This document shows, in pieces, positions 2 through 19,788 of a stretch of DNA of 20,000 bases. Position 1 is the stretch's first letter, and each line of letters starts with the position of its first letter. The DNA lies in the sequence record DRR378314_468; one strand, 5' to 3'. Both the position numbers and the translations under genes were made by a program. Under the pieces are notes generated by a model. That model made no database searches and had not been told where the DNA came from. It was given only the letters and a program-made list of their open reading frames with translations.

Positions 2-988
2 GAATTATCGGCTAACCACAATGGGGATATTGATATTGCCAAGAGAACAATAATTGAAGCAAAAAAGGCAGGTGCCAATGCGGTAAAACTCCAAACCTAT
101 ACTCCTGACACCCTAACTATTGATTGTAACAACGAATACTTTCAGATTCATGGAGGGACCTTATGGGACGGAAAGACTCTTTATGAGCTATATGGGGAGG
201 CCTATACGCCTTGGGAATGGCATGAAGAGCTTTTTGAATTGGCAAAGAGCGAGGGTTTGATTTGCTTTTCATCTCCTTTTGATAAATCCGCAGTGGATTT
301 TTTAGAAGAGTTAAATGTTCCTGCATACAAAATTGCCTCTTTTGAGATTCAAGACATCCCCCTAATAGAGTATGCCGCATCAAAGCGCAAACCTATGATT
401 ATATCAACAGGAATTGCTAATGAAGAAGACATAAGTTTGGCTATTGAGGCATGCCACAAAATGAATAATCAAGAGATTATCTTGTTAAAGTGTACGTCTT
501 CATATCCTGCTCCATTGGAGCTTGCCAACCTAAACACTATACCCGATTTAAAACAAAAGTTTAATGTCCAGGTTGGATTTAGTGACCATACTTATGGTAG
601 TTTGGCCCCTACAGTAGCGGTTACTTTAGGAGCAAGGGTTATTGAAAAACATTTCATTCTGGAGAAATCCATTGGAGGTCCAGATGCAGACTTTTCTTTG
701 GACGTGGATGAGTTCAAAGCGATGGTTGATAAAGTGCGGGATACGGAAAGATTATTAGGTAGGGTTTCTTATGAAATTTCTGAAAAGGTAAAAAAGAACA
801 GGAAATTTGCTCGCTCTCTATTTTTGGTCTCGGATGTCAAGGCGGGGGAACGAGTCACAGAAGACAATGTTAGGTCAATTAGACCAGGTTATGGGATGCA
901 CCCCAAATTTTTGAATAAAGTATTGGGAAAAACATTTACAGGAGATTTTATGAAAGGAACTCCTTTAAATAAGAAGATGATAAAATGA
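2..988 (+). CDS. pseI: Pseudaminic acid synthase (NeuB family with C-terminal SAF/AFP-like domain), 5'-truncated by the window edge
   Basis: The frame is open from base 2 (ELSANHNGDIDIAKRTIIEAKKAGANAVKLQTYTPDTLT) and in frame with ORF 239..988. ELSANHNG, KLQTYTPDT, KIASFEI, LLKCTSSYPAP, GFSDHT and IEKHF are PseI-type rather than NeuB/LegI-type motifs. The C-terminal VRSIRPGYG fits a SAF domain. Confidence 0.9.
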   Translation, partial: ELSANHNGDIDIAKRTIIEAKKAGANAVKLQTYTPDTLTIDCNNEYFQIHGGTLWDGKTLYELYGEAYTPWEWHEELFELAKSEGLICFSSPFDKSAVDFLEELNVPAYKIASFEIQDIPLIEYAASKRKPMIISTGIANEEDISLAIEACHKMNNQEIILLKCTSSYPAPLELANLNTIPDLKQKFNVQVGFSDHTYGSLAPTVAVTLGARVIEKHFILEKSIGGPDADFSLDVDEFKAMVDKVRDTERLLGRVSYEISEKVKKNRKFARSLFLVSDVKAGERVTEDNVRSIRPGYGMHPKFLNKVLGKTFTGDFMKGTPLNKKMIK

Positions 989-1004: not shown

Positions 1005-2216
1005 TTGAGAACTGGGATTTATAATGTTTTTTTCAGAAGTCTGACTTTATTTGCCAAGTTCCTGTTTATCCTGTTCTTAGGAAGGTATTCCCCAAACGAG
1101 CTAAACTTGGGGGTATATGGACTATTTGTGACCTCGGTAACTTTATTGATTTATTTTATAGGGTTTGATTTTTATGTGTTCAACACACGAGAAATTATAA
1201 GTGATCGAACTCACCTGTCAGAAAAACTCTCAAATCAACTTATACTTCACTTAATAGTATATGTGGCGATTATTCCTGTTGCGGTATTCATATTAGGGCG
1301 AACGGGAATTATTGGTAGTAGTTATCTATGGGTTTTTGTTTTCTTAGTGGTGGCGGAACACCTAGGTCAAGAGTTTTATCGACTTTTTACAACTCTTGAG
1401 AAATCAGTATTTGCAAATATTATTTTATTCATTAGATCAGGGTTTTGGGTCCTTATAGTATTTTTTGATTTTTTTGTTCTCAAAAACCCTGTTGATTTAA
1501 AAAAGTACCTGATTTTTTGGCTTTGCTGCTCTAGTTCTGCCGTAGCGTTCTCTACAATCTTTGTGGGTAAGAACTATAATATTTTGTTTAGCCCTCCTGA
1601 TTTTGGTTGGATAGTAAAAGGGCTAAAGACAGCCTCAGTCTTTTTTTTAAGTTCAATTTCCTTTCAAGTGATTCAATTCTCCGACAGATTTATTATAGAT
1701 TTTTTTTATGGAAAAAAAATGGTGGGGATTTATACTATGTATTCTCAATTTACAAATGCCATTGAAATATTTACTTTTTCGGCAATTACAATGGTGGCTT
1801 ATCCAAAAATGATTAAAGTTTTTGAAAAAAAGGATATATACGAGAAAACAAAAAACACTTTTTTCAAAAGACTCATTTCAATGACCATTCTTTTAGTTGT
1901 ATTTTGCGCTTTATTATCCCCTCTAATTTTTAGTTTTTTGAATAAAGATTCTATAATGGATGAATTAGATACTTTTTATATACTCCTTGGGGGAGGGATT
2001 TTTCTAATAATGTCCAATGTATATCATTATGATTTATTTGTGAAGAAAAAGGACCCCATCATTTTAAAAACGGCAATAGGTGGAATGGTTTTAAACATTA
2101 TTCTTAATTTGATAATGATTCCAAAATGGTCAATTGAAGGAGCTGCTTGGTCGACAGGCATAACCTTCCTTTTGATTTTCACAACAAAATATTATTATAG
2201 TAAAAAGCAAGCATGA
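1005..2216 (+). CDS. wzx: O-unit flippase (Wzx / polysaccharide biosynthesis protein)
   Basis: 403 aa with many hydrophobic segments. LGVYGL near the N-terminus, the SDRFIIDFFYG..VGIY motif and C-terminal LNIILNLIMIPKWSIEGAAWST are typical of Wzx. TTG start; an in-frame stop lies at 981-983. Confidence 0.85.
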   Translation: MRTGIYNVFFRSLTLFAKFLFILFLGRYSPNELNLGVYGLFVTSVTLLIYFIGFDFYVFNTREIISDRTHLSEKLSNQLILHLIVYVAIIPVAVFILGRTGIIGSSYLWVFVFLVVAEHLGQEFYRLFTTLEKSVFANIILFIRSGFWVLIVFFDFFVLKNPVDLKKYLIFWLCCSSSAVAFSTIFVGKNYNILFSPPDFGWIVKGLKTASVFFLSSISFQVIQFSDRFIIDFFYGKKMVGIYTMYSQFTNAIEIFTFSAITMVAYPKMIKVFEKKDIYEKTKNTFFKRLISMTILLVVFCALLSPLIFSFLNKDSIMDELDTFYILLGGGIFLIMSNVYHYDLFVKKKDPIILKTAIGGMVLNIILNLIMIPKWSIEGAAWSTGITFLLIFTTKYYYSKKQA

Positions 2217-3643: not shown

Positions 3644-4834
3644 ATGCTAAAAAAACAACAATTTCTATTTTTTGTTTTTGCCACTAATGCACTTTTGTAT
3701 TCTTTGGTTTATTTTTTCCCTGTTAATAATTACGGAGAACCCCAAATCCCAATTATTTTAAAATTGATTTTTGATTTTTTTTCTTTGGGTCTTTTAGTTG
3801 TTTTTGGTCTAAAAAGAAAAATGGACGATGTCCGACTTACTGGACTGTTTTTTTTGATAATAATTGTTTTAGTTGGGATTTTACATATTCCGCACACATC
3901 TATTGCTGACTATCTACATTTTACAATTAGAAACATCTGTTTTTATGCATTATTACTATTTGTTGATTATTATCCCAAAATCAACAAGGAAAGCTTTAGA
4001 CGCTTTCATGAAGGCCTTTTTAAATTTATTTTGATTTTTGGATTAATCCTCTTCACTCTTCAAAAAGCTGGAGTCCCAAATCCATTTCCTTTTAAAACAT
4101 GGTTATGGGAAGGGAATAGACTGATTACTTCTTGGCTCAACCCAAATTCATTGGGATTCTACTTGATTTTTTATCTTTTCTATTTTTATAGTAAGTACGG
4201 TAGATTAATTCCTTTAGTTGGACTAATAATCATAAGTATTTTCTTAACTGGTTCTATTACTGCAATTATTGGTACTATTCTTTTTTTAATTTTTTTGCTC
4301 TTAAAATTCTTTTCTTCAAAAAAGCTGAAGGCAAGTTATATATTGGCTATTTTGATTTTATTGCCGGCAGGAGCATATTTTGCAGTTTCCTTAGGAGCAT
4401 TGGATTATATTTTATTTAAAATCGATGTCCTTTTTATAAAAAAGGAAAAAATTTACACATCTGTTTCAACCAGGATTGAAAACATAAATGATTTGATAGT
4501 ATATCTTAGGCCTGAAAACATTTTGTCTATTCTTTTGGGTGATTTTAACACTGATACCTATAGAAGACTAGATAGTCAATATCTAAATGTTTTTTATAAC
4601 TATGGATTAATAGGATTAATGAGCTACCTTGTTTTTTTAATATCGGTTTTTCTTAAGCTAAAAAACCATTTGAATAACGAATATTCAAGAGCATTTTTTT
4701 TGCTTAGTATCTGGCTTTATTTAGTAGCCTTTAATCTGACTGCTTATTTGTACAGACCCAATGTTGCAGTGTTTTACTATCTTATGTTAGTATATACGTT
4801 ATCCAACCAAAAAAAGCAAACAGTATTTGATTAA
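3644..4834 (+). CDS. wzy: Putative O-antigen polymerase (Wzy-like multi-pass membrane protein)
   Basis: 396 aa with about 10 TM segments. RLITSWLNPNSLG loop motif and late periplasmic loop (SVSTR...DSQYLNVFYNYGLIG). Very AT-rich; starts immediately after the preceding stop (TAGATG). Confidence 0.65.
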   Translation: MLKKQQFLFFVFATNALLYSLVYFFPVNNYGEPQIPIILKLIFDFFSLGLLVVFGLKRKMDDVRLTGLFFLIIIVLVGILHIPHTSIADYLHFTIRNICFYALLLFVDYYPKINKESFRRFHEGLFKFILIFGLILFTLQKAGVPNPFPFKTWLWEGNRLITSWLNPNSLGFYLIFYLFYFYSKYGRLIPLVGLIIISIFLTGSITAIIGTILFLIFLLLKFFSSKKLKASYILAILILLPAGAYFAVSLGALDYILFKIDVLFIKKEKIYTSVSTRIENINDLIVYLRPENILSILLGDFNTDTYRRLDSQYLNVFYNYGLIGLMSYLVFLISVFLKLKNHLNNEYSRAFFLLSIWLYLVAFNLTAYLYRPNVAVFYYLMLVYTLSNQKKQTVFD

Positions 4835-6110
4835 GATCTTTCAAAACATCAAACCTATAAAAGTTGAGGCATTTGTGACACATTCGAGAATAAACATAAA
4901 CGAGATTTTGTTGGGACTTGTACTCTTCTCGCTACCTATATCCCTAAAAATCAACTCTCTTTGCCTAATAATTTTGGCCATTTATAATTTTACTCTCAGA
5001 GTAAGACTACGATCAACCGCTGGCTTAAATATTTTTGGAGTTTTGTTAGTTTTTTTTTTAATTCAATTGTTGAGTTTTTTTTTAAGTTCAAACGGTGAAG
5101 AAGCAACAAAAAAACTCATATTATTCCTATGTTTTCCGACATTTTTCCTGATATATCCCACAAATAAAATTAGAGTTGAAAAAATATTTCTCTATTTGAT
5201 TTATGGAACTTTGAGTATTGGCATATATGCATTTATAAGGGCTACTTATGAGGTTTTAATTTATAATGTAAGATATGATTACGGAAGAGGCCCTGAATTA
5301 CTTTTGAAATTTGTTCCACACCACGCCTATTTTTCGATGTTTATTATAATATCGATTCTTACTATTTTTTGTTTAGTTGGCAATAAAAAGGTAAAACCGG
5401 CATTTTTGTTACTTACCCCAGCACTTTTATTCTACCTATTTATCTTGCCGTCTAGAACGGCTCTTTTAGTTACTTTTCTTGTTTTGCCGTTTTTTTTGTT
5501 TTCGTTTTTAAGGAAACGATATGATATAAAAATAATTGTTGGTATCGGCATTTTGGCATTAACCATTGTAGCCTTTATTGGGTTTCATATTGACTTTACC
5601 AGAGATAAACTAATTTATGCCTTCTACGAGTTATTCAATATTGCCACCGAGGAAAAGCCCTTTATGGGAATATCTAAGAGGGAAAAAATATGGCATTCAA
5701 GTATTGGCCTTTTTCAAAACTTACCCATCTGGGGATATGGTATTGGAGATGTCCAAGAAGTTCTGGACAAAAAATATATGGAATTGGGATATGATGAGGT
5801 TAAAGGTTATAATGCCCATAACCAATTTCTGCAGTTTGTGTTACAGTATGGATTTCTCCTTTCAATTCTAATTTTAATTCTTATAGCGAGAATATTGACT
5901 TTGCTGGTAAAAAAGAAAGAAGAGCTTTTATTGTCTTTTTGGATTGTATTGTTGATGTTCTGTCTTTCAGAATCTATATTGAACAGACAATGGGGAGTGG
6001 TTTTTTTTTCCATACTTTTATGCTTTTCTTGTTATAAAATTTATTTTGAAAAATTACATAATTATAATTCTTTTCATACCCTAGAAACGGGAAAGACAAA
6101 AGACCCTTGA
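4827..6110 (+). CDS. O-antigen ligase (WaaL / Wzy_C family) membrane protein
   Basis: 427 aa multi-pass protein with SRTALL, KREKIW, WGYGIGD and NAHNQFLQ..LQYG (the conserved His of the Wzy_C/WaaL loop). TTG start is uncertain. Confidence 0.75.
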   Translation: MIKIFQNIKPIKVEAFVTHSRININEILLGLVLFSLPISLKINSLCLIILAIYNFTLRVRLRSTAGLNIFGVLLVFFLIQLLSFFLSSNGEEATKKLILFLCFPTFFLIYPTNKIRVEKIFLYLIYGTLSIGIYAFIRATYEVLIYNVRYDYGRGPELLLKFVPHHAYFSMFIIISILTIFCLVGNKKVKPAFLLLTPALLFYLFILPSRTALLVTFLVLPFFLFSFLRKRYDIKIIVGIGILALTIVAFIGFHIDFTRDKLIYAFYELFNIATEEKPFMGISKREKIWHSSIGLFQNLPIWGYGIGDVQEVLDKKYMELGYDEVKGYNAHNQFLQFVLQYGFLLSILILILIARILTLLVKKKEELLLSFWIVLLMFCLSESILNRQWGVVFFSILLCFSCYKIYFEKLHNYNSFHTLETGKTKDP

Positions 6111-6128
6111 AAAAAGGAGACTATTGAA

Positions 6129-6269
6129 ATGAAGTCAGGGATGAATTTACGAATCTTTCAAACATTCGATGCCGTTAGTGGTTTAGCGGAAATAGTTGTG
6201 TTATTAGTACGTTTCAATAGTCTTCTATTTTTAAGATTATTGTTTAATGGCCCTGTTAATAATAATTAG
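6129..6269 (+). CDS. Possible 46-aa small protein (below the ORF-track length cutoff)
   Basis: Reads MKSGMNLRIFQTFDAVSGLAEIVVLLVRFNSLLFLRLLFNGPVNNN*. AGGAG at 6115-6119 lies 9 nt upstream, and the ORF fills most of the intergenic gap. No homology recognised. Confidence 0.25.
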   Translation: MKSGMNLRIFQTFDAVSGLAEIVVLLVRFNSLLFLRLLFNGPVNNN

Positions 6270-6281
6270 TAGATAGTTTTA

Positions 6282-7277
6282 ATGAAAGTTGCTATTATTT
6301 TTGGTGGTTCAGGTTATATAGGATCACATTTGGTAGAAATATTGTCCAATGGGGACGTGTTTGATCGATTGTTTGTTTGTGACATTCATGAACCAAAATT
6401 TTGTATAGAATCGCATTCTAAGGATAACGTTTCTTTTTTCTTATGCGATGTTAGGGTTCCAATAAATATTCCGTTGCACAAGATTGATATGGATAATAGC
6501 TGGGTTTTCAATTTCGCGGCGGTACATAGAGAACCTGGGCATGAATTTCAAGAGTATTTTGATACAAATATACCAGGGGCGGAGAACATTATTAAATTCG
6601 CCAATAAAACAGGTGTAAAGAATATTTTGTTCACAAGCAGCATTGCCCCGTATGGTAAATCTATAGAAGAACGAACTGAAAAATCACCACTCTATCCGGA
6701 AACAGGCTATGGTATATCCAAGGCGCTTGCAGAGCAAATACATCAAAAATGGTTGGCAGAAGACCAATCTAAAAGACTTATTATTGTAAGACCCAGTGTT
6801 ATTTTTGGCCCCAAAGACCCAGGTAATGTTTATAGAATGATAAAGGGCATTAAAAAAGGAACATTTGTATTGCCCAATGGAGGAAATATCATCAAAGCCT
6901 ACGGGTATATTTATGGATTGATTGATAGCATGCTGTTTACTATGTCTAAAAATGAACAATCACTTATAGTTTATAATTATGTGGAAAACCCTACAGTGCC
7001 GCTTTGTGAAATGGTCAAAATAGCTAAGAATGAACTGGGTTATACCAAACCAGTTCTCAAAGTATCTGTTAGGTTTTTGGCCGCAGCCGCATTTATTTTG
7101 CAAATTGTATTCAAACTGGCAGGAAAAAAATCTGACATTCATCCAGTGAGAGTGCGAAAAGCGGGTTTTCCTACCAATATTAAACCCAAATACTTGATTG
7201 ATCACGGGTTTGATTTTAAATACGATTTTCAAAATGCATTAAAACACTGGAAAAATGTTTCACCAGAAGATTTCTAA
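6282..7277 (+). CDS. NAD-dependent extended-SDR epimerase, Gnu-like (possible undecaprenyl-PP-sugar 4-epimerase)
   Basis: GGSGYIG, FTSS and YGISK are SDR motifs. FAAVHRE, GVKNILFTSS, IVRPSVIFG..GNVY, VYNYVENP and GKK...VRVRK resemble E. coli Gnu as recalled. Confidence 0.8.
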   Translation: MKVAIIFGGSGYIGSHLVEILSNGDVFDRLFVCDIHEPKFCIESHSKDNVSFFLCDVRVPINIPLHKIDMDNSWVFNFAAVHREPGHEFQEYFDTNIPGAENIIKFANKTGVKNILFTSSIAPYGKSIEERTEKSPLYPETGYGISKALAEQIHQKWLAEDQSKRLIIVRPSVIFGPKDPGNVYRMIKGIKKGTFVLPNGGNIIKAYGYIYGLIDSMLFTMSKNEQSLIVYNYVENPTVPLCEMVKIAKNELGYTKPVLKVSVRFLAAAAFILQIVFKLAGKKSDIHPVRVRKAGFPTNIKPKYLIDHGFDFKYDFQNALKHWKNVSPEDF

Positions 7278-7282
7278 ATAAA

Positions 7283-8425
7283 ATGAAGGTAGCGATAGTA
7301 CACGAATGGCTAACAGTAGTCGCCGGTTCTGAAAGTTGTTTAAAAGAGTTTGCGAAGATATATCCTGAGGCCGACATTTTTGTTTTGGTCTCTGATGAAA
7401 ATAGTTTGGAGAAACTTGAAATTGAAAAAGATAGAGTATCCAACTCCTTTATACAAAAACTTCCTAAGGCAAAGACAAAATGGAAGAATTACCTGCCCCT
7501 ATTCCCATTTGCCATAGAGCAATTTGATTTATCTGAATATGACCTGATTATCTCATCCTCCCATGCTGTTGCTAAGGGTGTAATTACAAACGCAAATCAA
7601 GTTCACATATGCTATATCTATTCACCAATTAGATACGCTTGGGACTTGTATCACCAATATATATATGAATCAGGACTTCAAAAAGGCTTAAAGGGTTTGT
7701 TCGCTAAGCGAATACTTCATTATATACGTAGGTGGGATAGGCAAACAGCAAATAACGTGGATGAATTTATTCCAATATCTCACTATATAGAGAAAAGAGT
7801 TTGGAGAACTTACAGAAGAGAGTCCTATAAAGTCATTTACCCACCAGTACAGGTTGATGAGTTTACTTTGTTTGAAGACAAGGAAGATTTCTATTTAACT
7901 GCTTCGAGATTGGTTCCCTATAAAAAAATAGGCCTTATTGTTGAGGCTTTTTCCAGTATGCCAGATAAGAAACTTGTGGTAATTGGAGATGGCCCAGAAA
8001 TGAAGAAAATACAAGAAAAGGCCAAGGAAAATGTATGTTTGATGGGGTACCAGCCGTTTGAAGTGCTGAAGAATCATATGCAACGGGCAAGAGCCTTTAT
8101 TTTTGCTGCTGAAGAAGATTTTGGGATAATACCCATAGAGGCGCAAGCATGTGGGACGCCAGTTATAGCATATGGAAAGGGAGGCTCATTGGAAACTGTA
8201 AATGGCAGGTTCGTTGGGGAAACCTTGGAAGAGGGATTGACAGGCCTTTATTTCAAAGAGCAAACGGTGTCTTCCCTTAAGGAAACAATTAACTATTTCG
8301 AATTAAACAAGGAAGCCTTTAAACCATCTGAAATTAGGGCATTTTCCTTGAAGTTTGATAGAAATATCTTTGTTGACCAGATAAAAAAAACATTTAATGA
8401 AATTTTTGAAAAACACCATAGATGA
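7283..8425 (+). CDS. GT4 glycosyltransferase, WbaZ-like (GDP-mannose-type donor)
   Basis: [50 protein letters not shown] and [25 protein letters not shown] are hallmarks of the WbaZ-like GT4 subfamily. Confidence 0.88.
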
Positions 8426-9456
8426 GAAAAGCTATTATAACAGGGATTACAGGTCAAGATGCGGCCTATTTAGCCGAATTGCTATTGGACAAAGGTTATC
8501 AAGTATATGGCACATATCGAAGAACAAGTTCTACCAATTTTTGGCGGATAGAAGATTTAGGTTTAGAGACGCACCCAAACCTCCATTTGTTGGAGTATGA
8601 CCTAGTCGATTTATCCAGTGCTTTTAGAATTATATCAGAAATTCAACCCGATGAGGTTTACAATCTAGCGGCTCAAAGCTTTGTTGGGGTTTCATTTTCC
8701 CAGCCAATTGCCACCGCCCAAATTACAGGTGTTGGAGCAATGAACTTATTGGAGGCAATTAGGACCATAAATCCAAAAATCAAGTTTTATCAAGCTTCTA
8801 CTTCAGAAATGTTCGGCAAGGTAAGGGCCATTCCCCAATCGGAAGAAACACCTTTTCATCCAAGAAGCCCCTATGGGGTTGCCAAGGTTTTCGCACATTG
8901 GGCAACATTGAACTATCAAGAATCCTACGATTTATTTGCCTCAAGTGGTATCTTGTTCAATCACGAATCACCGTTGAGGGGCAAAGAATTTGTTACAAGA
9001 AAGATTACAGACTCAGTTGCCAAAATTTCCTTAGGAATGTTGGATGTTATCGAGTTGGGCAACCTGGACGCAAAAAGAGATTGGGGATACGCCAAAGACT
9101 ATGTTGAAGGAATGTACAGAATACTGCAGGCCGAACAGCCTGATGTGTTTGTTTTGGCCACGGGTAGAACAGAAACTGTCCGGGATTTTGTTGAGATGGC
9201 ATTCAAAGCCATAGGTGTTGATATGAAATGGCAAGGAAAGGATGAAAATGAGATAGGATTAGATAAGAAGACAGGTAAAACACTAGTTAAAGTCAACCCA
9301 AAATTTTACCGTCCTGCCGAGGTAGATTTACTGATAGGAGACCCCACAAAGGCTAAAAATATTCTAGGATGGGAAGCAAAGACCTCCCTTGAGGAATTGT
9401 GTGAAATGATGGTAAAGTCTGACATTGAAAAAAATAAAAATGGAAAGTCCTATTAG
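8422..9456 (+). CDS. gmd: GDP-mannose 4,6-dehydratase
   Basis: [67 protein letters not shown] and RPAEVDLL are all present. Confidence 0.97.
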
Positions 9457-10339
9457 TAAAACAGTTTTAATAACCGGCATTACTGGTTTTACTGGAAGAC
9501 ATTTAGAATCTGAACTCTCAAGTAGTGGTTTTAAAGTATATGGGACAACCTATTCCAAGCCAAAGCAAGAAAATCATTTCCAATGCAACATTTTGGATCT
9601 CGATCAATTGACAAAAGCGGTTTTAAGAACTGACCCTGATTATGTTATTCATCTTGCTGCAATTTCATTTGTGGCCACCAAAGATGTTACTAATATTTAC
9701 GCTACCAATGTGCAGGGAACACTCAACCTAATAGAGGTGTTACTTGGTGCGGGAAAACCAATAAAAAAAATCATTTTGGCCAGTAGTGCGGCCGTTTATG
9801 GTAACATTGGCAGTGTTCTTTCCGAAGACATGTGCCCCAAACCGGTAAATCACTATGGGAACAGTAAGTTGGCAATGGAGAATATGGTTGCCAATTATTT
9901 TGATAAACTCAATATTATAATTGCAAGGCCATTTAATTATACAGGGACAGGTCAAGAAGACCATTTCTTAATACCTAAAATCGTTAAGCATTTTAAGGAA
10001 AAGAAAGAAGTAATTAAACTAGGCAACCTTGACACCTATAGAGAGTATAATGATGTGAAGTTTTTAGTAAACTGTTATAGAAAATTACTTTTTAGCGATT
10101 ACAAATCCGGAGTTGTGAACATTGCTAGTGGCACAACATTTTCTATAAATGATATTTTATCCATTATGGCAGAGCTGTCGTCTTACAAGATTAATGTTGA
10201 AGTAGATAAGCAATTTGTCCGAAAAAATGAGATAAAAGAACTCAAAGGATCACCGGAAAAATTAATACAACTTATAGGAAACAAGTCGGAATCTAAAAGT
10301 TCCTTAAAAAATACGTTGGAAGAAATGTATATTAGTTAA
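9440..10339 (+). CDS. GDP-4-keto-6-deoxy-D-mannose reductase (Rmd/Tld type; GDP-D-rhamnose or GDP-6-deoxy-D-talose synthase)
   Basis: SDR motifs [43 protein letters not shown] and LGNLD. It directly follows and overlaps gmd. ATG at 9440 is preferred over the track's TTG at 9425. Confidence 0.8.
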
Positions 10340-10394: not shown

Positions 10395-11747
10395 ATGTTT
10401 TTCAAACAACATAGATATTCAAACCTAATAACCCCAACCTCATATATTTTTGATTTGGTGGTTTTGAATATATTCCTATATATCTTGCCTATAAACTTCC
10501 AAACCCCCGTTCTAATTCATGTGTATATATCGCTTGCATGGATAATTATTTCAACAAAAAACGAATTTTATACCGTTTACAGGTTTTCTAAGGTTACCTA
10601 TATCATCAGGCTGCTATTTGTACAGTTTGTGTTCTTCTTTTTAATGCTATACGCGTTTATTGGGTTTTTCAAACAACCAATCATAAGTAGACTGGCCCTG
10701 GGCGAATATTTTATCATAGTTTTTCTGATTATCTCAACCTTAAAGCTCTTGAGTTATTTCCTGTTGATGGAGTATAGGGAGAAAGTAAAAGGAAACTTAA
10801 GAAACGTCGCTATAATTGGAAAAAACAAAAAAACAGATCAACTTAGGCAGGTTTTTAATGAGAGGGCAGAGTTTGGATACAACTTCCAAAAACAATTTTC
10901 ACCTAAATCCAAAGATTTTGTGCTGGAAGAGTGTTTCGATTATATTTTGGGAAACAATATCGATGAGGTCTACTGCTCTGTCTCGGAGCTTAAAAATGAA
11001 GAGATTGCCAAGTTCATCAGCTTTGCGGACAATAACTTAAAAACACTCAAATTTATACCCGACAATAAAAACATCTTTTCCAAAAAGTTAAAGTTCGAGT
11101 ATTACGATTACATACCTGTTCTTTCTCTTAGGGATATCCCGTTGGACAGCCCCATAAATGCATTTATTAAAAGAAGTTTTGATATTGTTTTTTCTCTCGT
11201 AGTTATTATTGGTCTACTTTCTTGGCTAACACCCATATTAGCATTGTTGATAGCCCTTGAGTCTAAGGGCCCTGTGTTTTTTAGACAAACCAGAAATGGA
11301 ATAGACAACAGGGAGTTCTATTGCTATAAGTTTCGGTCGATGGCGCCCAATAAAAACGCGGATGACATTCAAGCGACCAAAAATGATATGCGAATCACCA
11401 AAATTGGAAAGTTCATTAGAAAAACCAGTATAGATGAACTCCCGCAATTTTATAACGTTTTGTTTGGAACCATGTCCGTAGTGGGTCCACGCCCTCATAT
11501 GGTAAAGCACACCAACGAATATGCCAGCAGTGTCGATAAATATATGGTGCGTCATTTCGTAAAACCGGGCATTACCGGTTTGGCCCAAGTGAGAGGCTAC
11601 AGAGGAGAAATAGAAACTGAAACCGATATCCAAAATCGGACTAAGTTCGATATTTTTTATATTGAGAACTGGTCATTGTTCTTGGATTTAAAAATCATTG
11701 TACAAACTGTACTTAATGCATTAAAAGGAGAGGCAAAAGCCTATTAA
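10395..11747 (+). CDS. wcaJ: Undecaprenyl-phosphate hexose-1-phosphate transferase (WcaJ-type initiating transferase)
   Basis: Four N-terminal TMs, a central Rossmann-like region, then the Bac_transf domain: KRSFDI, KFRSM, RKTSIDELPQF.NV..G.MSVVGPRP, VKPGITGLAQV and YIENWSLFLDLKII. Confidence 0.9.
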   Translation: MFFKQHRYSNLITPTSYIFDLVVLNIFLYILPINFQTPVLIHVYISLAWIIISTKNEFYTVYRFSKVTYIIRLLFVQFVFFFLMLYAFIGFFKQPIISRLALGEYFIIVFLIISTLKLLSYFLLMEYREKVKGNLRNVAIIGKNKKTDQLRQVFNERAEFGYNFQKQFSPKSKDFVLEECFDYILGNNIDEVYCSVSELKNEEIAKFISFADNNLKTLKFIPDNKNIFSKKLKFEYYDYIPVLSLRDIPLDSPINAFIKRSFDIVFSLVVIIGLLSWLTPILALLIALESKGPVFFRQTRNGIDNREFYCYKFRSMAPNKNADDIQATKNDMRITKIGKFIRKTSIDELPQFYNVLFGTMSVVGPRPHMVKHTNEYASSVDKYMVRHFVKPGITGLAQVRGYRGEIETETDIQNRTKFDIFYIENWSLFLDLKIIVQTVLNALKGEAKAY

Positions 11748-11753
11748 AATCAA

Positions 11754-12725
11754 ATGAAAAAAACACTTATCACCGGAGCAGCTGGGTTTTTAGGGTCTCA
11801 CCTTTGTGACAGGTTTATAGCCGAGGGCCACCATGTTATTGGGATGGACAACCTTATCACCGGGGACATCAAAAACATTGAACATCTATTTCACCTAAAA
11901 CGGTTCGAGTTTTTTCACCACGATGTTACCAAATTTGTTCATGTTCCTGGCAATATGGATTATATCCTGCACTTTGCCTCGCCAGCAAGTCCAATTGATT
12001 ATTTAAAAATTCCGATAGAAACGCTAAAGGTGGGTTCTTTGGGAACACTCAACTTGTTGGGATTGGCCAGGGATCACGGGGCCCGAATTCTAGTCGCATC
12101 AACTTCGGAGGTTTATGGAGACCCCTTGGTACATCCCCAAAGCGAAGAATATTTTGGCAATGTTAGCCCAATTGGCCCACGAGGGGTGTACGATGAAGCC
12201 AAACGTTTTATGGAGTCCATTACCATGGCCTATCACCGGCATCACGGTTTGGATACACGCATCGTTCGGATTTTCAACACTTACGGTTCCCGTATGCGGT
12301 TAAACGATGGTCGTGTCGTCCCGGCTTTTATGGGACAGGCACTTCGTGGCGAGGATTTGACCGTTTTTGGAGACGGTTCGCAATCACGCTCGTTTACCTA
12401 TATCGACGACCAGATTGAGGGAATTTATCGCCTATTGATGAGCGATTATGTGGAACCCATCAATATTGGAAATCCGGATGAGACCACTATTTTGGAATTT
12501 GCCGAAGAAATCATCAAGCTCACAGGAACCGACCAAAAAATTATATTCAAGCCATTGCCACAAGATGATCCCATGCAACGACAGCCAGATATTTCCCGAG
12601 CCAAAGAAATCTTGGATTGGGAACCAAAGGTACACCGCTCCGAAGGCCTTAAAAAAGTATTCGAATACTTTAAGTCACTTTCACACGACCAGTTGTGGGA
12701 ATCTCATAGGGAATTTTTGCCGTAA
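11754..12725 (+). CDS. uxs: UDP-glucuronate decarboxylase (UDP-xylose synthase) family SDR
   Basis: [56 protein letters not shown] and [10 protein letters not shown]. Confidence 0.92.
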
Positions 12726-15661: not shown

Positions 15662-16267
15662 ATGTTCAGCGATTTTGCCTTCAAAATATTCCAAAAAAGT
15701 ATAGATACCTATCACATCAAGGATGATGTACAACAAGAATTTTCCAATCCTTATCCAAAGGATAAAATAGAGCATTTACTTTACAGAAAAAACTGGATAG
15801 ATACCGTACAATGGCATTACGAGGATATTATCCGCGACCCGGGAATTGAACCTGTAGCAGCCTTGGAGCTCAAAAGAAAAATAGATGCCAGCAATCAAGA
15901 CCGTACGGATTTGGTGGAGTATATCGATAGCTATTTTTTGAATAAATACCAATCGGTTCAGGTAAAGGGTGGTGCTACTATCAATACCGAAAGTCCTGCG
16001 TGGGCCATCGATCGGCTTTCCATTTTGGCACTGAAGATCTATCACATGCAAGAGGAAGTGAACCGTACTGATGCGTCTCAAGAACACGTCGATAAATGTA
16101 GGGCGAAGTTGGATGTTCTTTTGGAGCAGAAGAAAGATCTTTCCACCGCCATTGATCAATTGTTGGCAGATATAGAATCCGGAGATAAGTACATGAAGGT
16201 TTACAAGCAGATGAAAATGTATAACGACGATGAACTAAACCCTGTGCTTCGTGGACAAAAAGGGTAA
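15662..16267 (+). CDS. DUF4254 domain protein
   Basis: KNWIDTVQWHYEDIIRDP, KRKIDASNQDRTDLVEYID, NTESPAWAIDRLSILALKIYHM and MKVYKQMKMYND. Confidence 0.85.
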   Translation: MFSDFAFKIFQKSIDTYHIKDDVQQEFSNPYPKDKIEHLLYRKNWIDTVQWHYEDIIRDPGIEPVAALELKRKIDASNQDRTDLVEYIDSYFLNKYQSVQVKGGATINTESPAWAIDRLSILALKIYHMQEEVNRTDASQEHVDKCRAKLDVLLEQKKDLSTAIDQLLADIESGDKYMKVYKQMKMYNDDELNPVLRGQKG

Positions 16268-17312
16268 ACATACCCATATCTTGGTCATTCGTTTGTCGGC
16301 CATGGGCGATGTGGCGATGACCGTCCCCGTTATCTGTGCACTCACTGATCAATATCCGGAAATACAACTTACCGTTCTTACCAAAAAACCGTTTAGGCCC
16401 ATTTTTGATGGATTGGAGAACGTGGAAGTAAAAGAAGCGGATGTAAAGAATCGGCATAAGGGCTTAATGGGGCTTTGGCGCCTGTACAAAGAACTTAAAC
16501 CTTTACGGTTCGATGCTGTTGCAGACCTACACAATGTGCTGCGCAGCCGCATTCTAAAAAAGTATTTTGCGTTGGAGAGCATACCATTTGCCCAAATTGA
16601 TAAAGGGAGAAAGGACAAAAAAGCACTTACCCGCACCAAGAACAAAGTCTTTGAACAATTAAAGAGCACACACGAAAGGTATGCCGATGTTTTTACTACA
16701 CTGGGTTTTCCGATTGACTTGTCCAATACCAAACCCTTGGAACGAGTTCAGCTTTCCGAAAAAGTGCTTGGTTTGGTGCAGCAGGACACCAAAAAATGGG
16801 TCGGAATTGCACCTTTTGCAGCACACGAAGGAAAAATGTATCCATTGGAATCGACCAAAGAGGTCATTAAAGCGCTTAATAATACCGAAAAGTATAAAAT
16901 TTTGTTGTTCGGTGGAGGGGCCAAAGAAGTGGAAGTATTGGAAGGACTTGCCAAAGATTACCAAAATGCAGAGTGCATGGCAGGTAAACTTAGCCTATCC
17001 GAAGAACTACAGCTCATTTCCAATTTGGATGTGATGCTGTCCATGGACAGCGGCAATGCGCACATGGCCGCCAATTATGGTATTCCCGTATTGACACTTT
17101 GGGGCGTTACGCATCCTTACGCTGGTTTTTATCCGTTTGGCCAGCCGATGGAAAATGCACTTTTGGCCGACCGTGAAGAATATCCTTTGATCCCAACATC
17201 GGTTTACGGCAATAAAGTGCCCCAAGGCTATGAGAATGCCATGAACACCATCAAACCAAAGGATATTTTGGAGAAGTTGATGGGGGTTTTGGAACCAACC
17301 ATAAAATCATAA
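16251..17312 (+). CDS. Glycosyltransferase family 9 (ADP-heptose:LPS heptosyltransferase-like)
   Basis: ILVIRLSAMGDVAM, VADLHNVLRS, GIAPFAAH.GK.YP and SMDSGNAHMAANYGIPVLTLWG.T.P. GTG start overlaps DUF4254 by 17 nt. Confidence 0.9.
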   Translation: MDKKGKHTHILVIRLSAMGDVAMTVPVICALTDQYPEIQLTVLTKKPFRPIFDGLENVEVKEADVKNRHKGLMGLWRLYKELKPLRFDAVADLHNVLRSRILKKYFALESIPFAQIDKGRKDKKALTRTKNKVFEQLKSTHERYADVFTTLGFPIDLSNTKPLERVQLSEKVLGLVQQDTKKWVGIAPFAAHEGKMYPLESTKEVIKALNNTEKYKILLFGGGAKEVEVLEGLAKDYQNAECMAGKLSLSEELQLISNLDVMLSMDSGNAHMAANYGIPVLTLWGVTHPYAGFYPFGQPMENALLADREEYPLIPTSVYGNKVPQGYENAMNTIKPKDILEKLMGVLEPTIKS

Positions 17313-17419: not shown

Positions 17420-18355
17420 ATGAAAAAAACAAGCTTGATTTTCTCCGCATTGATAGGAATTACTATGCTTTCCTGTTCCACCGATGAACCCATCGAAAAC
17501 CCCAATGCTGGCCCAAGACTGAATATTACTTTTATAATGGATGCTGATGCCGAACGACTGGATAATTTGGGAAACCCAGTTTCGGTGCCGGAAGGCAATG
17601 CTGCGCAAGATCCCGATTTTGATGTTTTGGGATTGCATTTTATTGGTTTGTACCCCGATAAATTTACCCCGTACGATGAGGGGGTTACCGTTGTATCTAC
17701 AGCCACTACGGGAAGTGGAGGGGCAACTGCGATCGACTTTGACAGCGAAGTATTTTTTAATGATGAATTAAATACGCTTAGTGTGCCCTTAAGCTTTGTT
17801 AGTACTGGCACCTACGAATATTTTAGGGCCTCCATTGGCTATCAGAAATACAGAATCGTATATAATTTAGAGGGCGCTGAAACGGAAATTCCCGACTGGC
17901 CCGCCAACGTGGACGACAATATTGATGTGGATGGTGTTGTGGCTTCTTTTTTAGGTTACAACACTTATATCGGGAGCTATGTAATCGATAAGCAGACTGT
18001 TTCGGTCAATGGCAACAAGGCCCAGGGCTATTTTGGTTTGGAAACTACCGGAGAAATCGAAGGATTTGTTCTTACCCAGTTAACCCAAGGAGAGGCCCCT
18101 CAAACTACTGTGCCCAACCCCATTGACGATACGTCTCCAGTACCCGAAGGTTCTTGCGTGGTTACGGGGCAATTCCCATCAGCTTTGGTGATACCTCAAA
18201 ATCCAACGGAAGACATCAACGTGGAAATTGTCATTTCCATTAACCAAAGTTTTGAATGGGAAGACGGCAACGGCAACGGCAAATATGAACCTTTGTTCGG
18301 CGAAACTGTTGTGGACATGGGCACACGAGGGGTTTTTCCTTCGGTAGTGGATTAA
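17420..18355 (+). CDS. Uncharacterised lipoprotein (SPII signal), acidic and beta-rich
   Basis: MKK plus a hydrophobic stretch and lipobox LSC (Cys19), followed by STDEPIE. C-terminal WEDGNGNGKYEP. Confidence 0.8.
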   Translation: MKKTSLIFSALIGITMLSCSTDEPIENPNAGPRLNITFIMDADAERLDNLGNPVSVPEGNAAQDPDFDVLGLHFIGLYPDKFTPYDEGVTVVSTATTGSGGATAIDFDSEVFFNDELNTLSVPLSFVSTGTYEYFRASIGYQKYRIVYNLEGAETEIPDWPANVDDNIDVDGVVASFLGYNTYIGSYVIDKQTVSVNGNKAQGYFGLETTGEIEGFVLTQLTQGEAPQTTVPNPIDDTSPVPEGSCVVTGQFPSALVIPQNPTEDINVEIVISINQSFEWEDGNGNGKYEPLFGETVVDMGTRGVFPSVVD

Positions 18356-19440
18356 GCCACTGTCCCCTGGCAACTGCTTCCAGCTCCAGCGGTACAACCA
18401 TAGCAATGTTGTGAGATAATAATGTCCCGATTGTTCAGCACATCATCATTGAAATCCTTAATGTGTTTTATGGAACTCGCCACTTTCAGGTCCAGCATTT
18501 GATTAAAATCGCAATCGTACAGCCAACCGTCCCAACTTACGGAGATGGTATTGGTACACATCACATTTTCCACTGCGGCAGGGTTGTAGGCCTCTACCAA
18601 GGAGTACATATAATCTTCATAATTGTCCGAAGCAATCAGGTAGTCCAAGAAACGTGAAATCGGCAAATTGGTAATGGCAAAAAGGTTGTGAAAGTCAATA
18701 TCAAAATCTTCTTTCAATGCCTTTTTAAAATCATGCTCCATAGCGGCCTGGTCGGCAGGCAAAAAAGCCCCCGAAGGATTGTACACCAAATCCAAGCGCA
18801 AAGGGCTATCGGGCATACCGTAACCTACTTCGTTTAGCATTTGCAGCGCCTTTATGGATTTATCAAAAACACCATCACCACGTTGTTTGTCCGTTTTGCC
18901 ACGAGTGTAGTGGGGCATGGAAGATACCACGTGCACATTGTGCTTTTTGAAAAATTCGGGCAGGTCGTGGTATTTTTTATTGGCCAAAATAATGGTAAGG
19001 TTGGAACGCACGATAAAATCTTTGATACCTGCTTTGGAAGCTTCTTCCACAAACCATCTAAAATCCGGGTTCATTTCAGGCGCGCCACCGGTAAGGTCTA
19101 GGGTATGGGCACCCGTATTTCGAATGACCTCCAGGCACTGTTCCATGGTTTCCCGCGTCATAATTTCCTTTCGGTCCGGTCCGGCATCTACATGGCAGTG
19201 CCCACAGACTTGGTTGCACATGTACCCCACATTTATTTGGAGCACTTCCAATGTTTTGGGCTTTAACGGAAATTGGCCGGTTTCCGCAATTTTATTCTTA
19301 AAGTAGGGAAGTACACCATCCGAAAAAAGTTCCCCGTTGAGGATTTCTAACTGCGCTTGGGAGTTGGCAAGTGTGTCTTTCTGTGCCTTTAAGGATTTCT
19401 TAGCTGCTTTTTTTAAGTCTGTAAGTATGCTTTGCGTCAT
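18352..19440 (-). CDS. arsS: Arsenosugar-biosynthesis-type radical SAM protein (ArsS-like, Cys form, C-terminal DUF3641-like domain)
   Basis: LQINVGYMCNQVCGHCHVDAGP.R.E.M (CxxxCxxC), LDLTGGAPEMNP.FR, LVYNP.GAFLP, YDCDFNQML and terminal HCYGCTAGAGSSCQG. Confidence 0.9.
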   Translation of the reverse strand: MTQSILTDLKKAAKKSLKAQKDTLANSQAQLEILNGELFSDGVLPYFKNKIAETGQFPLKPKTLEVLQINVGYMCNQVCGHCHVDAGPDRKEIMTRETMEQCLEVIRNTGAHTLDLTGGAPEMNPDFRWFVEEASKAGIKDFIVRSNLTIILANKKYHDLPEFFKKHNVHVVSSMPHYTRGKTDKQRGDGVFDKSIKALQMLNEVGYGMPDSPLRLDLVYNPSGAFLPADQAAMEHDFKKALKEDFDIDFHNLFAITNLPISRFLDYLIASDNYEDYMYSLVEAYNPAAVENVMCTNTISVSWDGWLYDCDFNQMLDLKVASSIKHIKDFNDDVLNNRDIIISQHCYGCTAGAGSSCQGTVA

Positions 19441-19452
19441 TCATCAAAAGGT

Positions 19453-19788
19453 TTACATGGAAAGTTTGTCGTATTTGTTCATCATTTGTACACCATGTAC
19501 CAAGGTGGCTCCACTTTCTATGGCGGCTCCCGCGTGTACGGCTTCCATCATTTCTTCTTTGGTGATTCCTCGCTGAAGGCCATCTTTGGTGTAGGCATCA
19601 ATACAATACGGACATTTTACTACGTGCGAAACCGCCAGTGCGATCAAAGATTTTTCTCGTGCACTCAGCGCCCCCTCCTCAAAAACTTTACCGTAGTAGT
19701 CAAAAAATTTATTGCCCAGCTCTTCGCTCCATTCGGTGATTTTACCAAATTTTCTCAAGTCTGCTGGATCGTAATATGATTTGGCCAT
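19453..19788 (-). CDS. AhpD/carboxymuconolactone-decarboxylase-family peroxidase-like protein associated with ArsS
   Basis: 111 aa: YYDPADLRKFG, GALSAREKSLIALAVSH...CPYCIDAY and GATLVHGVQM. It lies 12 nt upstream of arsS on the same strand. Confidence 0.88.
   Translation of the reverse strand: MAKSYYDPADLRKFGKITEWSEELGNKFFDYYGKVFEEGALSAREKSLIALAVSHVVKCPYCIDAYTKDGLQRGITKEEMMEAVHAGAAIESGATLVHGVQMMNKYDKLSM

Follow-up and report, generated by a model that had tools for sequence, protein, structure and literature searches.

A Gnu-superfamily short-chain dehydrogenase/reductase beside a WcaJ-type initiator in a marine Flavobacteriaceae polysaccharide locus: a proposed carrier-level C4 epimerase

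The 20 kb stretch of DNA analysed here (the window, from sequence record DRR378314_468) covers a polysaccharide locus, for an O-antigen or a capsule, from a marine Flavobacteriaceae genome, and the housekeeping genes that follow it. The gene at 6282-7277 on the plus strand translates to an intact open frame of 331 aa, and the product, P0001, is predicted to be an NAD-dependent extended short-chain dehydrogenase/reductase (SDR) of the Gnu superfamily. The gene is followed by one for a family 4 glycosyltransferase (GT4), P0002, and, further downstream, by one for a large WcaJ-type polyprenyl-phosphate hexose-1-phosphate transferase (PHPT). We hold with moderate confidence that the SDR alters C4 of the carrier-linked sugar made by the PHPT, before this sugar is extended by the GT4. 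The precedent for an epimerase working at the level of the lipid carrier is the work of Rush et al. 2010 on Gnu, as summarised in Cunneen et al. 2013 (PMC3682973).

In the scheme that we propose, the PHPT would load a hexose-1-phosphate, by family assignment glucose (Glc), onto polyprenyl phosphate, and the SDR would then invert C4 of the sugar on the carrier by way of a short-lived 4-keto intermediate. With glucose as the substrate, this step would yield galactose (Gal) linked to polyprenyl diphosphate (Gal-PP-polyprenol). The second sugar, transferred by the GT4 from a GDP-linked donor, would be mannose or else D-rhamnose, for which there are adjacent Gmd and Rmd-like genes, and the unit would be completed, flipped by Wzx and polymerised.

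Relationship of P0001 to Gnu and GalE

The reference used for Gnu was the E. coli O157 Sakai gene annotated as gne (ECs_2847, Z3206), located between wcaM and galF, which is the position given for the characterised O157 enzyme (Cunneen et al. 2013, PMC3682973). P0001 and Gnu are both 331 aa long and align over their full length (28 % identity over 322 aa, E 4e-40), sharing the blocks AAxHR, GVKNIxFTSS, RPxVIFG..GNVY, VYNYV and GKK..VRV(R/K)K. An initial annotation of this DNA had proposed, from such motifs, that the SDR resembles Gnu more than it does the soluble enzymes GalE and Gne, and every motif that it quoted is present in the 331-aa translation (AAVHRE, 79-84; GVKNILFTSS, 111-120; RPSVIFG, 170-176; GNVY, 181-184; VYNYVENP, 230-237; GKK, 281-283; VRVRK, 289-293). 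When P0001 was compared with the whole E. coli O157 Sakai chromosome, Gnu was the best match (121.9 bits), about 80 bits ahead of GalE (40.8 bits), with YbjS (23.8 bits) and HldD (21.1 bits) next. Among the NCBIfam models, GalE matches P0001 weakly, and TviC (clade B) did not match it at E 0.001 or better.

A HMMER scan of 1.84 billion representatives recovered 209 clusters (50 % identity) at E 1e-30 or better. The family set used here consists of the 114 full-length sequences among the best 150 representatives and two SDR domains taken from fusion proteins, bringing the number to 116. Each of the 116 gave a higher score against Gnu than against GalE, YbjS, HldD, UDP-glucuronate decarboxylase (UDP-xylose synthase, UXS), the Rmd-like SDR of the window (SDR2) or an O84 SDR. 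As four of the 116 are nearer to Gnu (40-45 % identity) than to P0001, Gnu and P0001 are joined by a continuum. A search with E. coli Gnu as the query returned only enterobacterial proteins of at least 81 % identity, which offer little diversity for a tree.

A maximum likelihood tree of 131 rows (quick search, LG+G4) was built with nine outside SDRs, namely GalE, HldD, YbjS, Fcl, two Gmd, UXS, the Rmd-like SDR and the O84 SDR. In this tree, which holds no reference sequences for clade B (GnaB/WbpP) or clade C (WbpV/WreQ), Gnu and the SDR family of P0001 form one clade with a Shimodaira-Hasegawa-like approximate likelihood ratio test (SH-aLRT) support of 99, and GalE lies outside it. The grouping with GalE or Gne, which the initial annotation had named as a result that would speak against its proposal, thus did not occur, and the closer relationship to Gnu is borne out by the pairwise scores, the 116 representatives and the tree alike. 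Within the clade, enterobacterial Gnu is found in an 11-row subclade (support 97) and P0001 in a separate 16-row subclade (support 98).

Clade D (Gnu), as it has been defined, reaches down only to about 50 % identity (PMC3682973). As P0001 shares one clade with Gnu but is only 28 % identical to it and falls in a separate subclade, we refer to it as a member of the Gnu superfamily and not of clade D in the strict sense. The subfamily of P0001 appears from these comparisons to be sister to the enterobacterial 4-epimerase Gnu, which acts on N-acetylglucosamine (GlcNAc) linked to undecaprenyl diphosphate (Und-PP). Biochemical study of this family is confined to the enterobacterial Gnu subclade and, because P0001 lies outside that subclade, a function transferred to it from Gnu is one that we infer. 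The link to Gnu is not itself new, since the NCBI-sourced automatic name on P0016, a Croceitalea homologue with 67 % identity, already states the Gnu product, i.e. conversion of GlcNAc-PP-Und to N-acetylgalactosamine (GalNAc)-PP-Und. Two family members, P0175 and P0207, have N-terminal extensions that contain no Pfam domain and look like read-through of high-GC DNA; these extensions were not used.

The catalytic apparatus of P0001 is intact. The protein matches the Pfam family Epimerase (PF01370, E 1.6e-24) and, more weakly, 3Beta_HSD and NAD_binding_4. The NAD-binding motif GxxGxxG is represented by GGSGYIG (8-14), and the triad is Ser119/Tyr143/Lys147. Across 68 family members, G8, G11, D34, S119 and R170 are invariant, Y143, K147, N182, K205, R290 and K293 are at least 90 % conserved, and the extended-SDR catalytic apparatus as a whole (G8/G11/G14, S119, Y143, K147) is conserved. 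An Asp after strand 2 of an SDR, here D34, fits NAD rather than NADP.

The AlphaFold2 model of P0001 has a predicted local distance difference test (pLDDT) value of 94.6. No solved structure was found for any member of the SDR family, and the six top matches of the model in the PDB are chains of four UDP-hexose 4-epimerase entries (template modelling score, TM, 0.67-0.73; identity at most 23 %). Weak matches to lipid-handling SDRs, namely 3-beta-HSD, OleD and the sterol enzyme NSDHL (6jkg), are suggestive only. The C-terminal stretch had been described in the initial annotation as amphipathic. A helix is indeed predicted at 263-279, but with a mean Eisenberg hydrophobicity of 0.55 and a moment of 0.35 its character is mainly hydrophobic and less amphipathic. 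A profile alignment (hhalign) of the P0001 family with E. coli GalE covers only residues 2-258, and ends before this helix and the R290/K293 motif. Two positions that contact phosphate in GalE seem to be retained in P0001 (N182 and K205).

The fold neighbours bring in the alternative that the SDR is a soluble nucleotide-sugar 4-epimerase or reductase, which makes the donor for the GT4 and never touches the lipid carrier. It might, for example, convert UDP-Xyl (the UXS product) to UDP-L-Ara or UDP-GlcA to UDP-GalA, or form a GDP-6-deoxyhexose variant. The closest solved folds being UDP-hexose 4-epimerases agrees with this explanation. However, the SDR family groups with Gnu, which is reported to be inactive on UDP-GlcNAc (PMC3682973), and not with GalE, and the part of P0001 that holds the C-terminal helix and R290/K293 is beyond the reach of the GalE alignment. 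We consider a soluble enzyme rather unlikely, and the gene neighbourhoods described below bear on it further.

Genomic partners of the SDR gene

Gene neighbourhoods were compared in 13 loci of relatives with a close SDR (48-69 % identity to P0001), in 201 genomes of Flavobacteriaceae, and in five genomes of SDR-carrying relatives (carrier genomes), which do not include the window's own genome. The constant partner of the SDR is the initiator and not the GT4. In 11 of the 13 loci, the same PHPT is encoded downstream of the SDR gene in the same orientation. Of the other two, a PHPT was not found in the flank of L009, and L040 is cut short by the end of its contig. Four of the 13 (L007, L008, L041 and L044) have the SDR gene directly followed by the PHPT gene with no GT4, and in L045 a 34 % paralogue of the SDR occupies the same place directly before the PHPT. 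The PHPT was found in 158 of the 201 genomes (E 1e-60 or better), as against seven for an SDR ortholog, and PHPT orthologs of like identity range (70-78 %) occur with and without the SDR. The SDR gene is thus an accessory one, which varies between strains and lies at the edge of the polysaccharide locus beside a conserved initiator. This arrangement mirrors that in E. coli, where WecA is constant and gnu is found only in serogroups whose first sugar is GalNAc (PMC3682973).

The PHPT scores 418.3 bits on the WcaJ model (TIGR03023 WcaJ_sugtrans, cut-off 410.75) and 226.4 bits on the WbaP model, shares 39 % identity with E. coli WcaJ across 325 aa, and has the Bac_transf and CoA_binding_3 domains of the large phosphoglycosyl transferase (PGT) architecture. 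The view in the initial annotation that the initiator is WcaJ-like, not WecA, stands. WecA was not found in three of the five carrier genomes, where MraY is the only PF00953 match.

These observations also bear on whether the SDR is a canonical Gnu, converting GlcNAc-PP-undecaprenol to GalNAc-PP-undecaprenol, which we regard as very unlikely. That is the product given by the automatic name on P0016, Gnu is the closest characterised relative, and a WecA-like gene is present in the remaining two carrier genomes. Against this, the three genomes with MraY alone are joined by a metagenome set of 80 loci of SDR relatives (35-71 % identity, scanned with a 7-sequence alignment, many of the contigs being short), in which a WecA-like gene was seen in a single locus. 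Gnu works downstream of WecA, whereas the conserved initiator adjacent to the SDR is a WcaJ-type hexose-1-phosphate transferase, and P0001 is outside the enterobacterial Gnu subclade.

In five metagenome loci of more distant relatives (L100, L147, L151, L161 and L164), the gene that directly follows the SDR gene codes for an initiator of the small PGT class (about 240 aa) rather than for a large WcaJ-type enzyme, and the order GT4-SDR-small PGT was seen twice among them. Initiators of more than one size class thus occur beside SDRs of this family.

The SDR gene ends at 7277 and the GT4 open reading frame (ORF) starts at 7283, leaving the gap of 5 nt that had been noted in the initial annotation. 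P0002 has GT4 Pfam domains (Glycos_transf_1, E 9e-23), and no NCBIfam model passed for it. Its best sequence match in the PDB is 2f9f, titled 'first mannosyl transferase (wbaZ-1)' (E 1.2e-15, residues 188-313 only). The GT4 adjoins the SDR in seven of the 13 relatives' loci and in the window (8 of 14). Orthologs of P0002 (75-78 % identity) were found in four of the 201 genomes, in each case directly beside the SDR. A second GT4 group, 50-53 % identical to P0002, occurs in eight genomes that lack the SDR, each time no more than 6 kb from the PHPT. The existence of these two groups fits GT4 lineages with different acceptors; different donors would fit too.

Among the best 150 SDR representatives, there are three fusions of an SDR with a GT4. 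In P0130 (SDR-GT4), the SDR part is 45 % identical to P0001 and the GT4 part is 34 % identical to P0002 over its full length (E 4e-67). P0215 (SDR-GT4) and P0233 (GT4-SDR) contain other GT4 types. The fusion is full-length in five of the seven members of the P0215 cluster, and P0130 and P0233 are single observations. In the 80 metagenome loci, a GT4 gene lies immediately before the SDR gene in 22 of 62 cases, and the gene immediately after it codes for a Bac_transf initiator in 9 of 60 cases and for a GT4 in 5-6 of 60; these counts stand without background rates. A predicted complex of the SDR and the GT4 scored 0.00 with controls absent, which is no evidence either way.

Functional coupling of the SDR to the downstream GT4 is supported by adjacency, by GT4 orthologs that occur only beside the SDR, and by fusion. 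The suggestion in the initial annotation that the SDR supplies the GT4 holds to that extent, but the initiator is the constant partner and four of the 13 loci have no GT4 between the two.

Adjacency and fusion to a glycosyltransferase would suit consecutive synthesis and transfer of a donor by a soluble SDR just as well, and UXS, Gmd and the Rmd-like gene are in the same operon-like run. However, the SDR occurs without UXS in L041 and without Gmd and Rmd in L005-L008, L041, L042 and L044, and the neighbour that recurs most regularly beside it is the PHPT rather than any enzyme of sugar activation. A part for the SDR in the GDP-rhamnose, UDP-xylose or pseudaminic acid pathway was considered and rejected, as the SDR is present in loci without each of these. 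In addition, all five carrier genomes already possess a GalE, scoring over 400 bits, elsewhere in the genome, and a second soluble UDP-Glc epimerase would therefore be redundant.

UXS adjoins the PHPT in 24 of 30 loci (L059-L088), whether or not the SDR is present, and PHPT and UXS are a conserved pair next to purD across Flavobacteriaceae. Xylose may accordingly be a constant component, or even the sugar that is transferred.

Proposed reaction and comparison with known systems

For action on the carrier-linked sugar, we infer epimerisation rather than reduction. Three features favour it, namely the relationship to Gnu, the epimerase-like folds nearest to the model, and an Asp34 of the NAD type. 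With a WcaJ-type partner in place of WecA, the substrate sugar is probably a hexose and not GlcNAc. The acceptor of Salmonella WbaZ is Gal-PP-Und. Conversion of Glc-PP-Und to Gal-PP-Und, as put forward in the initial annotation, is plausible; it relies on a marginal TIGR03023 score and on that WbaZ acceptor, and holds only if the PHPT transfers glucose. No description of a hexose-level carrier epimerase, e.g. one acting on Glc-PP-Und, was found in the open-access literature searched.

A lipid-level C4 ketoreductase would also act on the carrier. Here, a 4-keto sugar-1-phosphate would be loaded by the initiator, and its reduction by the SDR would take place on the carrier, as documented for reduction of a 4-keto sugar at the Und-PP level by WreU/WreQ of Rhizobium etli (PMC11257628, a 2024 preprint). 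The small PGT adjacent to the SDR in distant relatives belongs to a class that includes users of 4-keto sugars, and the pathway to pseudaminic acid, which begins with an enzyme that forms a UDP-4-keto sugar, is found in six of the 13 relatives' loci and in the window. However, the invariant Asp34 suggests NAD and not NADPH, the initiator in the window is of the large WcaJ type and is conserved with and without the SDR, there is no PF02719-type 4,6-dehydratase in the window, and the nearest characterised relative is an epimerase. We consider this explanation quite improbable. The R. etli records in the plasmid collection did not match P0001 at E 1e-8 or better, and a search for WreQ in bases 1-2000 of R. 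etli plasmid p42b met only genes for a small sugar transferase and a 4,6-dehydratase-like protein.

Several results weigh against a carrier-level epimerase. The nearest folds are those of soluble UDP-sugar epimerases, and retention of N182 and K205 does not separate UDP from Und-PP as the ligand. Adjacency and fusion to a glycosyltransferase fit a maker of its nucleotide-sugar donor equally well. The one biochemically characterised member of the superfamily is in a different subclade from P0001 (97 versus 98), at the low identity given above, and the tree is without the clade B and clade C references. The PHPT exceeds the WcaJ model cut-off by only 7.5 bits, and its donor specificity is not reliably predictable. 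No PHPT was seen by tblastn in 61 of the 80 metagenome loci, among which there are many short contigs. GT4 genes are common in such loci, and the figure of 22 of 62 for an upstream GT4 has no background rate beside it. Finally, another public version of the same gene has one base fewer and a truncated protein (see the next section), so that the enzyme may be off in the source strain.

A carrier-level epimerase in this locus would share features with several known systems. Like E. coli O157 Gnu, P0001 belongs to the same superfamily clade, has 331 aa and the same motif blocks, including the C-terminal GKK...VRV(R/K)K, and is encoded by an accessory gene beside a conserved initiator. It differs in its low identity to Gnu, its separate subclade and its WcaJ-type partner, and in that SDRs of its type are often directly coupled or fused to a GT4; its activity is a prediction. 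In Yersinia pseudotuberculosis O6/O7, a gnu-GT-gne module places a carrier-level epimerase gene beside that for the glycosyltransferase which elongates the chain from the epimerised sugar (PMC3682973). The starting point there is GlcNAc-PP-Und formed by WecA, and a soluble Gne is part of the module, whereas the neighbours in the window are GT4, Gmd, the Rmd-like gene and PHPT. In R. etli WreU/WreQ, as would be the case in the window, an initiator of the PHPT superfamily places the first sugar on the carrier, and C4 of this sugar is then altered by an SDR (PMC11257628). WreQ, however, reduces a 4-keto-6-deoxy-N-acetylhexosamine (HexNAc), and the likeness is by description and not by sequence. 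The same preprint notes a growing number of sugar modifications at the Und-PP level. GalE and Gne have in common with P0001 the extended SDR fold, the Ser-Tyr-Lys triad and NAD binding, and are its best structural matches, but GalE is in a separate clade some 80 bits below Gnu, and the C-terminal substrate domain cannot be aligned past 258. P0002 is likened to the Salmonella WbaZ-type GT4 through the PDB entry 2f9f, and not through a Salmonella WbaZ sequence.

A broader proposal would be that this large SDR family of 209 clusters consists of carrier-level 4-epimerases that act behind monotopic PGTs and not WecA; that the SDR in the window is the first polyprenyl-PP-hexose epimerase (Glc-PP-Und to Gal-PP-Und); that some members are fused to a GT4 as an 'epimerise then extend' unit; and that O-antigens are generally diversified in this way around one conserved initiator outside Enterobacteria. 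As a combination, this is possible but doubtful. If the SDR does act on the carrier-linked sugar, the reducing-end sugar predicted from the initiator alone would be wrong for these loci, and the same annotation problem would affect many other polysaccharide clusters, given the size of the family at E 1e-30 or better. The Gnu paradigm of one WecA-made HexNAc in Enterobacteria would extend to another initiator superfamily and another phylum, and this would explain how one conserved initiator serves polysaccharides with different first sugars. The SDR-GT4 fusions would be compact enzymes for glycoengineering.

The A7 tract and the remainder of the locus

The SDR frame passes through a run of seven A residues (A7) at 7124-7130. 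The sole 100 % identical protein in the database, P0003 (288 aa), matches P0001 to residue 282 and then ends in NLTFIQ-stop, i.e. six out-of-frame residues. This is the end expected of an A6 tract, so that with one base fewer the SDR stops at 288 aa and loses the conserved R290/K293 motif. In run X1, the one run that contains this stretch, a contig of depth 295 likewise lacks one base at 7124; contigs cannot reveal minority variants. A7 is the ancestral frame, as it restores full-length homology to all orthologs. The difference between A6 and A7 could be phase variation, a pseudogene or inactivated copy in the sequenced culture, or a difference in assembly.

Near the 3' end of the GT4 gene, at 8383, a minority X1 contig (depth 103 of 969 summed) lacks 2 bases. 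The extra depth here suggests related sequence from elsewhere in the X1 data set.

The features of the window are listed in Table 1. After a gap of 171 nt (6111-6281), which is the largest in the gene run, the genes from SDR to UXS follow one another closely, all in one orientation. The GC content is about 0.30 at 1-6 kb and 0.34-0.40 from the SDR on, and the position of the SDR looks like the junction of a low-GC strain-variable part and a conserved part of the locus. The pair of Gmd and the Rmd-like reductase is a probable source of GDP-D-rhamnose.

Table 1. Features of the 20 kb window
Feature	Position	Strand	Remarks
PseI, pseudaminic acid synthase	2-988		Low-GC part
Wzx flippase	1005-2216		Low-GC part
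KpsS/KpsC-like protein, 476 aa	2213-3643		Low-GC part; Capsule_synth domain
ORF without assignment	3644-4834		Low-GC part
Wzy_C-domain protein	4827-6110		Low-GC part
SDR P0001, 331 aa, Gnu-superfamily extended SDR	6282-7277	+	Proposed carrier-level C4 epimerase of the first sugar
A7 homopolymer within the SDR gene	7124-7130	+	Codons G281-K283
GT4 glycosyltransferase P0002, 380 aa, WbaZ-like	7283-8425	+	Proposed second-sugar transferase
Gmd, GDP-mannose 4,6-dehydratase	8422-9456	+	TIGR01472, 481 bits (cut-off 415); 4-nt overlap with the GT4 stop
Rmd-like GDP-4-keto-6-deoxy-mannose reductase (SDR2)	9425-10339	+	PDB sequence matches 4lw8 (9e-63), Rmd 2pk3 (1.7e-32), 6x3b (4e-30)
Large WcaJ-type PHPT, initiating enzyme	10395-11747	+	
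UXS, UDP-glucuronate decarboxylase (UDP-xylose synthase)	11754-12725	+	Human UXS1 structures, E 1e-105
purD, DUF6427, DUF4254, GT9			Downstream of UXS, in that order

The KpsS/KpsC-like protein weakly matches the BFO_1060 glycosyltransferase family (E 2.5e-4). Its gene adjoins pseI and wzx and is kept together with both in L003 (57 % identity), and the product is a candidate pseudaminic acid transferase.

Downstream of purD, at 15662-17312, the gene for the DUF4254 protein (201 aa) overlaps the start of the GT9 heptosyltransferase-like gene. This pair, with DUF6427 upstream, is kept in the same place in most relatives, and the DUF6427-DUF4254-GT9 set may be a lipopolysaccharide-core module. 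On the minus strand, at 18352-19788, there are genes for a radical SAM protein with a DUF3641 C-terminal domain and then a small carboxymuconolactone-decarboxylase-family protein, which are 82-97 % conserved in relatives.

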